64,000 nucleotides of DNA, taken from Escherichia coli. GTDB taxonomy: Bacteria; Pseudomonadota; Gammaproteobacteria; Enterobacterales; Enterobacteriaceae. The position numbers are program-made. How positions within the stretch are numbered: position 1 is the stretch's first letter; each line of letters begins with the position of its first letter. The DNA is taken from NCBI RefSeq assembly GCF_048403405.1, contig NZ_CP183129.1. The stretch is one strand, 5' to 3'. This document shows positions 37,501-43,500 of this stretch, one piece after another.

Positions 37501-40500
37501 ATTCAGGGTCAACGGTTTGAACAAACATAAGTTCATGCCGCAATTTAACCCTTTTTCACGTTCGTTAGCCTGTGCGTTGGCTGTAAGCCCCCAGATGGGT
37601 AAGGAAGAATTTTGCTCACGGAGTTTGCGAGTCAACTCAAAACCATCCATATTCGGCATATTAACGTCAGTAATAAGCAGATCATAATGTTGCATACTGA
37701 CTTTGTGTAGCGCTTGCACACCATCAGTGGCTTCATCAACATCATATCCTAATAGGTTTAGCTGGCGTTTGAGTAATAGCCTGTTGGTCGGATGATCATC
37801 CGCGATTAATATACTCAACTTTTCAGGGAGTGTCATAGGTTGTTCTGCTTTTGCCTCGACAGTCGCCACTTGTTGGGTAATTTCTACCGGGATTGTGATC
37901 GTAAATGTCGTTCCTATGCCTGGATGACTTTCTAATGACAAATCGCCCTGCATGTTTTTAATTAATTCTTTGCAGATCATTAAGCCTAAACCAGAACCTG
38001 TTTGCTGACGACCTGCACTTGTTTGGCTATAGCGTTTAAACAGTTGTTGTTGTTCTTCCTGTGATAATCCACTTCCAGAATCCATAATCGTCATTTTGAT
38101 TACAGCGTGGTTGTCATCAATGTTAACCAGGGAGGTCGTAATTTTTACTGCCCCCTCGGTGGTAAATTTGAGAGCATTGCTCAGTAAATTAGATAAGACC
38201 TGCTTAAACGCCTGAGGGTCGATCTTAACCAGGTAATGTTCAGGAAACGTACTGCTGCAACTTAATGCGATCGATTTGCTTGCAGCAATCGCACCGAAAG
38301 AGTGACAAGTGTTCTGGACTAAAGTAGGGATATCGACCCATTGTGGTTGAAGTTGATAGTTACCCGACTCAATTTTGTCGACATCAAGGATTTCACCAAT
38401 TAAGCCGAGGAGTGATTGTCCGGTGGCGTAGGCAAGTGAAATCGCCTCCACCCGTTGTTCCTTGCTAAGACCAGAACCCGACAGAAGTTCCAGGAAGCCC
38501 ATAATGGAGCTTATTGGTGTTCTTATTTCGTGACTCATTGTTGCCAGAAACTGACTTTTTGCGACAGTTGCATTGATCGCTTTATTTCTCTCTACTTCGA
38601 GAGCGTGAATTAAATCACGCGTCTCGGTAATATCTTGCCAACCACAAATATAAACAGCATGATCGCTGGCTGGCAGATTGCATAATGTATGCCAGTGATT
38701 AATGCATCTTTTCTCGATGCCATTATCAATTTCAAATACCTGTGTGTATATTGTTCGATTTTCTTTCGTTTCTGCTGTGACTTCATGCGCATTAGAAAAA
38801 ACATCTTTAAAGGGTGAGTCACTGTTTTCTAATGGTAACATTGCATTTTTGTAGTAATCCGCAGTGAAATAATGTTCAAAAGCACTATTATGACTAATGA
38901 CATTACCTTGCCAGTTTACAACATAAGTTGGATTCGGTAAGGAATCCGAGAGTGCTTTTCGGAATGATATTTGGTTTTCTAAATCACCCTGAATGACTTT
39001 ACGACGACGAACTGAGCGTAACAGGTAGAATCCCCATAAAAGGCTACTGCCAACTAATAAAACGGATAATGTCGTGACAATATAAAATTGCTCGCTATAG
39101 AGGTCCCATGTGTCAATGGTCACATTGGGCATTTTAATCCATTTTTCCGTCAGGCGCAGAACTTCGCTTGGGGGAATTGCATTCAGTGCTTTATTAATAA
39201 TATCCTTAAGTTCCGGTTCTCCGCGAGGAAAAGCGAACGAAAGCGATGCATTCGGAACGCCGGGAATAAGAAAATGATAAAGTTCATTAGGATAGTAATG
39301 GTCGATCATGTAACGTGAATTTAACTGTGTCGCGACCAGAGCATCAAGTTCGCCTTCCTTGACCTTGTGAAATGCAGCGCTGGCGTTATCGACTTTTATC
39401 CACTCTACCTCCGGATACATCTCTTTTAATTGCGAATGAAGCTCATAATAATAGGGAATGGCAACTTTCATTCCTTTTTTTAATGTTTGTTCACTGTCAG
39501 GCGCTTTTTGCATGACAAAAACGTAAGGCGTTGTTATGAAGGCTTCAGCAAATAAAACATTATTTTCTCTATCTTCACTATAAATAGCGGCGGGCAATAT
39601 ATCCCATCCACCGGGGTTAAGCTGTGTCCCCGCATGAATATTGTGTGAAACGGTGATCGGAGAAAAATTTAAACCTGTTTGCAAGGTAATAATATTAAGA
39701 ATATCACCCATCACGCCCCGAACTGAGCCAGTTTCATCTGTCATAGAATAGGGGGGCGAGTAAGGATTTTCCAGCACCTTTAAATCGGGATGCTGCTTAA
39801 TCCACTGTTTTTCATGTTCAGTGAGTTCTAATGGTTTGTTCAGAAAGGCCAGGTTTCCTGTATCAAGCCAATTTTGTGAAACTTCATAGCGAACTTCATT
39901 TGTTAAAGCATCAACAAACCGATTGAGTACTTCATTAAGAATGATTGAATCTTTTCTGGTTAAGAAAAAGTTATATTGACGCGGCGAGTTATAATATTTC
40001 ACTACATTTAAGGAGTGAGTGAAATAGCGGGAAATCATACTGCTGGTGATGATGTTACTACCAATAAAGTAATCATTCTGTCCGGCTGAGACGGATGCTA
40101 ATGCCTGATATAAATTTGTAAAAGAGATAATTGTTGCTTTTGGAAATGATTGATGAATTACCTCGTCTGGAGGGTAATTTGCTACTCTAGCAATATTTAC
40201 TGGTTTTGATGAGGTAAGCGGTCGCATTGAATCGTGAAGGGTGGTGACCAGCGCCGGAAAGGTAATTATCAGCGGTTTGGTTGCAGCAATGTCATCATTA
40301 AGAGGCGGCGAAGCAACCAAATGTGATAACACTATATCGACTTCACCTTCTTCCAGCGCGTCCATTGCTTTTTGATGATCTGCGTATTCCCGGAGTGTTA
40401 ATTTGATATTTAACGCTCTTTTTAACAGATTTAAATAATCAGCATTAATACCACGAACCCGTTGCTGTGAATCGGTATGCAACAACGTAGCCGTTTGGGA

Positions 40501-43500
40501 CTTGTGTACTGCAATCACAAGATTTTTTTGCTCGCTAACCAACGTAATTCCTTGTTGCTCAGACGTAGTGGATCAAGTGTGACACGGTTGTTACTACTGA
40601 TGCCACGATATTCGATGTAATCTTCGTCTGCGAAACCTATTGTCGACCAAAGACCACAACAGAGAAGAAAAATATAGGGTAAAAACTTCATGTGGTTAGC
40701 CGATTTTGTTACGTTGTGCGAATGTGTAAAGATCCATCAGTGATTTACATTCTAATTTTTCCATCAGGCGACTTTTATAAGTGCTGACAGTTTTGTTGCT
40801 GATGAACATTTTTTCAGCAATGTCATTATTATCCTTGCCATCAAGAATATATCGCATGACACTAATTTCTTGTTTCGATAAGGAGTCGAGTTTTTGCTGG
40901 TCGGACGTTAAACTTCCAACAAACCGGTTGAGAGAGAAGGGGAAATAGCAGTAGCCATTTTTTGCAGCTTCAATAGCCGCAATGATATTGTTCATGCCTT
41001 CTTTTTTACTCACGAATCCATTAGCGCCAGCATCAGCACAATGTTTCCCGTAAAAATGGTCATTTTTAGCGGAGACGATAATAATAATTCCGCTATATTG
41101 GCGCTTCCTCAGCGTTTCTAACACCTGGATACCGTTAACTCCGGGGATATCGACATCAATGATGACGATATCAGGTTTAAGTGTTTCCACACGCTGAACG
41201 GCACTTCCCCCTTCAGTCAACTCCGCTAAGATTTCAATATCGTTTTTGATCAATAAATTACGAATTGCTGCGATAGCAAGAGGATGGTCATCAATAATTA
41301 TTGCGTTCATAGATTATTCCCTTTGCAATGAAGCATCTCCCTTCTCCCTGTAGTAATACAGACATAAGGCATCATCTCATTTTCTCAATAAAAATAAGAA
41401 AATTTGAGCTTCCTTTAAGATAATTCGACAAGTATACCATATAAATAGTCGGCATATATGAAATGTCAACAATAAAATCAGGGATTGTACCGATGATTTA
41501 TAGTTTCACATTAGTACTATAAGTCTTCTCACTAATCCTACATGCGTAAGAATTGTATTGCAAAAGCCACGGTTTAGTCCTCTGTTGTTTTTTTTGCACC
41601 TCATTTAAATTAGGCCTCCAACGTTCCTGGGACAATGTGCAACACATGCACTGTGTTTGATATGAAGAATGAATACTCTTTTCATTCAATTCATAAATTT
41701 CATCTATGCGAAATGAGAGATAATAGTGGAACAGATTAATTCAAATAAAAAACATTCTAACAGAAGAAAATACTTTTCTTTATTGGCGGTAGTTTTATTT
41801 ATTGCGTTTTCAGGTGCCTATGCCTATTGGTCAATGGAATTAGAAGACATGATTAGTACAGATGATGCCTATGTCACGGGGAATGCAGATCCAATTTCTG
41901 CACAAGTTTCAGGCAGCGTCACTGTCGTTAATCATAAAGATACGAACTACGTTCGACAGGGTGACATTTTAGTCTCACTGGATAAGACTGATGCCACTAT
42001 CGCACTCAATAAAGCTAAAAATAATCTGGCCAATATTGTTCGGCAAACGAATAAACTGTACTTACAGGATAAACAATACAGTGCCGAAGTCGCTTCAGCA
42101 CGTATTCAGTATCAACAATCTTTAGAAGATTATAACCGTCGTGTACCTTTAGCGAAGCAGGGGGTTATTTCAAAAGAAACGCTGGAGCATACCAAAGATA
42201 CGTTAATAAGTAGCAAAGCGGCATTGAATGCCGCTATCCAGGCTTATAAAGCGAATAAAGCTTTAGTAATGAACACACCATTAAACCGTCAGCCACAAGT
42301 CGTTGAAGCGGCGGATGCAACCAAAGAAGCCTGGTTAGCGCTTAAACGTACGGATATTAAGAGTCCTGTTACCGGCTATATTGCCCAGAGAAGCGTTCAG
42401 GTCGGCGAAACAGTGAGTCCCGGACAATCGTTAATGGCTGTCGTACCGGCACGTCAAATGTGGGTTAATGCCAACTTTAAAGAAACACAACTCACGGATG
42501 TACGGATTGGTCAATCGGTCAATATTATCAGCGATCTTTATGGTGAAAATGTTGTGTTTCATGGTCGGGTGACAGGGATCAATATGGGAACCGGCAATGC
42601 GTTCTCCTTATTACCTGCACAAAATGCGACAGGGAACTGGATCAAAATCGTTCAGCGTGTACCGGTTGAAGTTTCTCTTGATCCAAAAGAACTCATGGAA
42701 CATCCCTTACGTATTGGTTTATCGATGACAGCAACTATTGATACGAAGAACGAAGACATTGCCGAGATGCCTGAGCTGGATTCAACCGTGACGTCCATGC
42801 CTGCTTATACCAGTAAGGCTTTAGTTATCGATACCAGTCCGATAGAAAAAGAAATTAGCAACATTATTTCGCATAATGGACAACTTTAATGGCAATCACT
42901 AAATCAACTCCGGCACCATTAACCGGTGGGACGTTATGGTGCGTCACTATTGCATTGTCATTAGCGACGTTTATGCAAATGTTGGATTCCACTATTTCTA
43001 ACGTCGCAATACCGACAATATCTGGCTTTCTGGGAGCATCAACAGACGAAGGCACCTGGGTTATCACTTCGTTTGGTGTAGCAAATGCCATTGCGATCCC
43101 TGTTACCGGCAGGTTGGCACAAAGAATAGGCGAATTAAGATTATTTTTACTTTCAGTAACCTTTTTTTCGCTATCTTCATTAATGTGTAGCCTATCGACC
43201 AATCTTGATGTGCTGATATTTTTTAGAGTCGTTCAGGGGTTAATGGCGGGGCCGTTAATTCCACTGTCACAGAGTTTATTATTAAGGAATTATCCGCCAG
43301 AAAAAAGAACATTTGCTCTGGCATTATGGTCTATGACCGTGATTATCGCTCCGATATGTGGGCCGATATTGGGCGGCTATATTTGCGATAACTTTAGCTG
43401 GGGTTGGATATTTTTAATCAATGTCCCTATGGGGATTATCGTTCTGACATTATGCTTAACCTTACTTAAAGGAAGAGAAACTGAGACTTCACCGGTCAAA

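Follow-up and report, generated by a model that had tools for sequence, protein, structure and literature searches.

EvgS, a hybrid sensor kinase, and EvgA, its cognate response regulator, constitute the main acid-dependent activator of gadE (PMC9769608). The system varies in nature. Some natural isolates carry an EvgS that is unresponsive to low pH through polymorphisms in the protein, EvgA is invariant, and purifying selection on evgS is weaker than on evgA, yfdE, barA or arcB, so that it is less constrained than its neighbours (Roggiani, Yadavalli and Goulian 2017, PMC5706723). The window studied here, a stretch of 64,000 nucleotides from Escherichia coli contig NZ_CP183129.1 (assembly GCF_048403405.1), contains an evgS gene whose reading frame, as deposited, is cut near its 5′ end by the absence of one A from a homopolymer. 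This differs from the described variants, which are amino-acid polymorphisms in full-length EvgS; frameshifted or truncated alleles appear nowhere in the text of that study, and a literature search turned up no relevant description of a frameshifted evgS or an evgS pseudogene. We consider it probable, at roughly 0.58, that the missing A arose as an error in the consensus of a long-read (nanopore-type) assembly and that the strain itself has a run of eight As (A8) and an intact evgS of 1197 codons. The platform of the assembly, and hence the artefact itself, is what we infer from the sequence comparisons below.

The closest counterparts are eight complete genomes in which the Prokaryotic Genome Annotation Pipeline (PGAP) labels evgS ‘frameshifted’. 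They share the lesion of the window, seven As (A7) for eight, but sit on other backbones (56–164 substitutions from the window) and are thus independent events or errors. About 70% of nanopore consensus errors in Enterobacteriaceae lie in the Dcm motifs CCAGG/CCTGG, and the remainder mostly concern homopolymer length (Wick, Judd and Holt 2019, PMC6591954). Three of the five differences private to the window belong to these same two classes, with the distinction that two of the three also exist as genuine alleles in other lineages. Contingency loci and the −1 frameshift sites of dnaX and IS1/IS3 resemble evgS in having an A tract within an open reading frame (ORF) whose length sets the frame. 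In contrast to them, evgS shows no sign of high-frequency switching, of a conserved need for a shift or of a stimulatory element.

As written in the window, the gene is composed of the following parts:

37099–40691, minus strand: evgS, the hybrid sensor kinase gene cut by a 1-bp deletion (3593 nt, against 3594)
40515–40691, minus strand: 58-codon 5′ ORF, comprising signal peptide residues 1–21 and 37 further residues, and ending in an out-of-frame Ile-Leu-stop
40523–40529, minus strand: A7 homopolymer, the frameshift site (T7 on the plus strand)
40515–40518, minus strand: GTGA, in which the TGA stop (40517–40515) overlaps the Val59 GTG (40518–40516) of the EvgS frame
37099–40521, minus strand: remainder of EvgS, L58–D1197 and stop, in the −1 frame and without further lesion

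The first-pass annotation had proposed that an ATG at 40691 opens a 58-codon ORF with a signal peptide that ends at 40515, and that the frames part within the T7 run. Codon-by-codon reading agrees with both statements. The start codon is ATG at 40691–40689 on the minus strand, and the EvgS N-terminus, MKFLPYIFLLCCGLWSTIGFA followed by DEDY..., is a typical Sec signal peptide; the product of the 58-codon ORF opens accordingly with MKFLPYIFLLCCGLWSTIGFADEDY... At the break, the codons are K55 (40529–40527), K56 (40526–40524), I57 (40523–40521), L58 (40520–40518) and TGA (40517–40515), so the A7 tract covers codons 55 and 56, both Lys, and the opening base of codon 57. The A8 allele reads AAA AAA AAT at the same place, encoding Lys55-Lys56-Asn57. 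The rest of EvgS follows in the −1 frame and ends with the stop at 37101–37099. The same annotation counted 1147 remaining codons, and here the frame holds while the number does not: 1147 amino acids are obtained when counting from an upstream in-frame TTG at 40542, which places seven codons before the break, overlapping the first ORF. The real remainder is L58–D1197, 1140 codons (40521–37102).

The single chain of EvgS, with its signal peptide, two periplasmic domains, transmembrane segment, PAS, HisKA/HATPase, receiver and HPt domains, is not encoded without interruption as written. An uninterrupted ORF is obtained only after adding one A, as had been anticipated; the repaired gene then has 1197 codons and no internal stop, and there is no secondary decay beyond the missing base. 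The GTG that overlaps the premature stop is a candidate point of termination-reinitiation, at which a product without a signal peptide may begin. The assignment to the evgS sensor kinase stands, as the repaired product matches the NCBIfam equivalog NF007420 from end to end (2884.5 bits against a cut-off of 1995, residues 1–1197 of 1197). It is identical to the clone-mate protein WP_001328517.1, and the window's evgS DNA equals that of the clone-mates except for the missing A. The genomic context is that of evgS: directly downstream of evgA, divergent from emrKY and adjoining yfdE.

A survey of 5,426 complete RefSeq E. coli genomes contains six clone-mates of the window (TUM14771, GN02461, 4621, TUM1226, OX030728 and MS 69-1). 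Each of them has A8, and evgS is intact in all. In the 14 kb around the gene, the missing A is the sole difference between the window and five of them, to which MS 69-1 adds two single-nucleotide polymorphisms (SNPs). The comparison with related strains that the first-pass annotation had suggested therefore gives A8 in every clone-mate as well as in both near outgroups. None of the 5,426 genomes matches exactly the 171 bp around the A7 run, and among them the lesion on this evgS backbone is private to the window.

The A7 allele itself is rare but recurrent. With a 67-nt query (A7 flanked by 30 nt on each side), an exact A7 was found in eight of 5,379 matching complete genomes (0.15%) and A8 in more than 99.8%. 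With A8 in all six clone-mates as well, the broken frame in the window is no chance arrangement of ORFs. The carriers are ST2747 (CP007394), WP4-S18-ESBL-07 (AP022087), TUM14759 (CP128877), ETEC1734 (CP122801), ETEC1739 (CP122758), USDA-ARS-USMARC-49610 (CP104123), E600003 (CM128598) and JNEC-KY175 (AP045171), and PGAP labels evgS ‘frameshifted’ in each of them. The lesion lies at nucleotides 163–170 of the gene, with identity at 67 of 67 positions around the run and no other defect; evgA, emrKY and yfdE are intact, and one added A restores each evgS ORF. These genes differ from the evgS of the window by 56–164 substitutions. Because their backbones also lie 23–178 substitutions apart from one another, two near-identical pairs excepted, the sequences indicate that the A7 lesion, or the same miscall, arose at least six times. 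A6 variants of the tract also occur. Throughout the species the tract is kept as A8, even though it could be interrupted by synonymous AAG codons. About 20 matches to the 5′ region of evgS in the complete-genome collection sit on plasmids.

Two of the carriers, TUM14759 and WP4-S18-ESBL-07, belong to a four-genome clade resembling sequence type 70 (ST70-like) in which no other member has A7, a 2:2 split. They come from two Japanese laboratories, and the other genomes of both projects have A8. Over 49 kb the clade shows nine SNPs, all singletons, so that A7 is the sole shared derived character and no shared derived SNP joins the two A7 genomes. TUM14759 also has a private difference in Dcm context. 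On these sequences, common descent of A7 in the pair is neither confirmed nor refuted.

The other differences private to the window bear most directly on the quality of its sequence. They were identified by alignment with three clone-mates (TUM14771, 4621 and MS 69-1) over 15100–60630 and with TUM14771 alone over 1–6170 and 7497–15697. In about 60 kb there are five: an added G at 9905–9910, C>T at 24778, C>T at 31434, the −1 in evgS, and C>A at 51896, a density of approximately one per 12–20 kb. The four between 24778 and 51896 are derived, as the outgroups MEI003 and C4 (99.0–99.3% identical) agree with the clone-mates, while the G run at 9905 is G5 in all complete genomes checked. Two of the five lie in Dcm (CCWGG) context, which covers 1.37% of positions (P for at least two of five, 0.0018), and evgS has lost one base from a run of the longest homopolymer class of the region (8 nt). 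With two frameshifting indels against three substitutions, this set is much richer in indels than are the 11 differences private to TUM14771, 4621 and MS 69-1, of which none is an indel and none is in Dcm context. This Dcm and homopolymer profile is the strongest single argument that the sequence is probably a long-read consensus with few residual systematic errors, evgS among them.

The second private frameshift of the window affects pdeA (yfeA), which encodes a cyclic di-GMP phosphodiesterase of MASE1-GGDEF-EAL architecture. The gene (8584–10774, plus strand) is split into ORFs of 444 and 293 amino acids by G6 in place of G5 at 9905–9910, and the run, CCTGGGGG, overlaps a Dcm site, CCTGG. 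On the backbone of the window, G6 was found in none of 5,421 complete genomes. At least three other lineages have the same split, seen among others in clean draft (short-read-type) assemblies with intact neighbours and in two NCTC genomes; G6 is a recurrent and genuine allele there.

Two of the private substitutions change proteins: C>T at 24778 gives E541K in YpdA, and C>A at 51896 gives N70K in UpaE. The former alters the outer C of CCAGG and not the methylated inner C, so deamination of 5-methylcytosine does not explain it. Since several distant lineages naturally have K541, its presence in the window would be either homoplasy or a motif-associated miscall. We rejected E541K as a marker of a sub-lineage, as the matching genomes are distant lineages (96–98% identity) that reflect homoplasy and are biased as outgroups. 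N70K, used in the same way, matched no record in the collections searched.

Public read-derived contigs show how the A7 call can arise. The exact 58-amino-acid product was found in one record (Logan ERR5353228) and the exact 1147-amino-acid remainder in one other (Logan SRR19165786). ERR5353228, which carries the evgS allele of the clone, also has a T6-to-T5 deletion in evgA and is visibly noisy. Peptides ending in ASKKIL-stop on other evgS alleles of the same protein cluster are represented by 59, 16, 8, 6, 5 and 1 contigs. Ten sampled contigs of the commonest such peptide were all shorter than 2.7 kb, with accessions in batches. They carried 1–10 further deletions per approximately 2 kb, mostly in homopolymers, and both evgA and the downstream part of evgS were fragmented. 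We therefore rejected these roughly 96 contigs as natural recurrence of the lesion. Noisy reads thus repeat the A8-to-A7 change on many unrelated backbones; it is a reproducible sequencing artefact, and most of its apparent public recurrence is not biology. Bulk-assembled noisy long-read runs also add spurious short proteins to large databases, such as 58-amino-acid EvgS N-termini and split EvgA halves. In P0010 (NCBI, a 1.57-Mb contig), the EvgA tail is fused to an A6 variant of the EvgS start.

A miscall of this kind would be expected from nanopore-type platforms, which systematically undercall long homopolymers; a true A8 tract rendered as A7 in the consensus would produce a false stop after 58 codons. 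The alternative that deserves most weight, quite possible although we favour it less, is a genuine and very recent slippage event in the A8 tract, private to this strain, that deleted one A and left evgS a null pseudogene. The deposited sequence reads so, and several observations weigh for it and against a miscall. Among long homopolymers (A/T of at least 6 or G/C of at least 5), compared with one clone-mate, TUM14771, over the whole aligned region, 145 of 147 agree, among them the two other 8-nt runs and every one of the eighteen other 7-nt runs, which indicates a consensus of generally good quality. The IS4321 copy in the window is 100% identical to a copy in another genome. With pdeA G6 genuine in other lineages and YpdA K541 natural elsewhere, both ‘Dcm’ differences could be real, and the branch leading to the window, which carries about one private substitution per 20 kb, has the length to hold real mutations. 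With A7 included and no other error, the SRR19165786 contig (4659 bp) matches the window at 100% identity. We weigh it for neither side, as it may not be independent of the window's assembly or come from an accurate platform; that both its ends lie in short homopolymers hinted weakly at a noisy platform, and was left unused because about a quarter of all positions lie in runs of at least 3. The eight RefSeq genomes carry the same allele beside intact neighbours on at least six backbones, and the ST70-like pair, whose project siblings have A8, hints at true inheritance. The weak purifying selection on evgS and the natural non-responsive alleles (PMC5706723), together with the inactivity of forms without the periplasmic domain (PMC5573083), are also consistent with a real null. 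A history of mismatch-repair deficiency would likewise yield two homopolymer indels and transitions, but the mismatch-repair genes lie outside the window. Against a genuine lesion, it is private to one record on its backbone, a second private frameshift and a substitution in a Dcm motif accompany it in an error-like combination (P approximately 0.002), noisy reads produce the same call artefactually, and the ST70-like pair is not backed as sisters by any SNP, one of the two having its own Dcm-context difference. The first-pass annotation had left the choice between true loss and homopolymer error even. Both options stand, whereas ‘equally’ is probably too generous to a genuine mutation, because the other private differences carry the signature of long-read consensus error.

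Two further explanations would give the tract a function. Were it a contingency switch, reversible between A8 and A7 and under selection, the window would show the OFF phase. The species-wide retention of A8 despite available AAG codons, the occurrence of A7 on several backbones and of A6 variants, and the presence of both lengths within one tight clade would fit such a switch. However, among complete genomes A7 stands only in the eight noted above, some share of which are errors, and in no clone-mate, most public recurrences are artefacts, and the two lengths do not occur at appreciable frequency among close relatives. Contingency tracts are also usually longer than eight bases and found in genes of the surface or restriction type, to which EvgS does not belong. 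A literature search for switching at the evgS A tract found no paper describing it, and we regard this explanation as very improbable. Less credible still is that full-length EvgS is made by recoding, either by a −1 slip of tRNA-Lys on AAA AAA A or by RNA-polymerase slippage that adds an A. Runs of A read by tRNA-Lys are slippery, as in dnaX and IS elements, and a −1 shift after Lys56 would read AAT CTT GTG, giving the exact wild-type protein. Yet more than 99.8% of orthologues are continuous ORFs that need no shift, and the zero-frame site, C AAA AAA, is not a canonical X XXY YYZ heptamer. No Shine-Dalgarno-like stimulatory element was found at the right spacing for a −1 shift, the downstream RNA fold at the run is no better than that of shuffled sequence (z = 0.23), and any rescue would be a small, unselected leak. 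Even when pooled, selected switching and recoding retain a slim chance. Only slightly less remote is a broader idea, in which the conserved A8 tract would act as a recurrent, heritable mutational off-switch that generates EvgS-null sublineages, the window and the two Japanese ST70-like isolates among them; selection might sometimes favour such nulls, EvgS activation being costly. Whether miscall or mutation, the evgS lesion is of an ordinary, already annotated kind.

The window as a whole is E. coli chromosome and covers ligA-side genes, gltX, pdeA, nupC, mntH, glk, the fry and ypd genes, yfdX-frc-oxc-yfdV-yfdE, evgSA, emrKY, dsdAXC, ipuBA, upaE and a tRNA-Arg site. The genes around evgS and the mobile elements are as follows:

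40696–41310, minus strand: evgA, cognate response regulator, intact, identical to WP_000991370.1 and without difference from the clone-mates
41726–44427, plus strand: emrK-emrY efflux operon, divergent from evgAS, intact
30668–37043, plus strand: yfdX, frc, oxc, yfdV and yfdE, all intact
6171–7496, plus strand: IS4321-family (IS110-like) element of 1.3 kb with an ORF at 6237–7241, between two YfeC-like regulator genes
4638–5846, plus strand: IS609-type TnpB (RNA-guided endonuclease family), 402 amino acids, adjoining gltX

The IS4321-family insertion is not in TUM14771. Many unrelated E. coli have the element at the same site, which is thus a recurrent target, and plasmids carry most of the copies in the collection. 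The element was considered as proof of long-read assembly and rejected, as it is usually single-copy on chromosomes and thus not decisive. The tnpA that adjoins the IS609-type tnpB is annotated as a pseudogene in a clone-mate. Between 48778 and 59600, next to dsdCXA, lie an ipuB-ipuA tyrosine invertase pair, a helix-turn-helix regulator and a phase-variable autotransporter of 2637 amino acids, UpaE.

At 60631 the window departs from its clone-mates, 14–15 nt into their tRNA-Arg gene, and tRNA detection found none in 60000–64000. Six small minus-strand ORFs (61013–63801) all match phage protein families, and the best partial matches of 60631–64000 are Ea22-like and torI-containing prophage regions. 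This segment is apparently the end of a mosaic prophage that occupies the tRNA-Arg site and is absent from the six clone-mates. Being mosaic, it had no close full-length match among relatives in which more indels could be sought.

If the evgS lesion is genuine, slippage would have removed one A, and established knowledge implies that translation ends after the signal peptide and 37 residues. A protein restarted at the GTG within GTGA (40518–40515), or farther downstream, would have no signal peptide, and the periplasmic sensor of about 515 residues, with its two Venus-flytrap domains, could then not be exported. EvgA would then not be phosphorylated in mild acid, and the EvgA, YdeO, GadE branch of exponential-phase acid resistance and the induction of emrKY would be lost, while stationary-phase acid resistance would be kept. 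At both pH 7 and pH 5.6, EvgS variants from which the periplasmic domain is missing show no activity, although the free cytoplasmic domain retains some activity when overexpressed (PMC5573083). The earlier proposal that a true lesion would cost the signal peptide and the activating kinase is thus in line with the literature (PMC9769608, PMC5573083). Loss of EvgS signalling is tolerated in nature, as the isolates that do not respond to low pH show (PMC5706723).

The two outcomes carry different messages. A true lesion would make the strain a natural EvgS-null, without mild-acid-inducible exponential-phase acid resistance or induction of emrKY. This would help to interpret the phenotype of the strain, but such a loss of function in one strain is of a familiar type. 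If the missing A is an artefact, the evgS A8 tract is a repeated source of false pseudogenes in long-read and raw-read assemblies. The pdeA frameshift in the window calls for the same caution as evgS, with short-read support first. Frameshifted evgS calls should not be taken as biology without such support.

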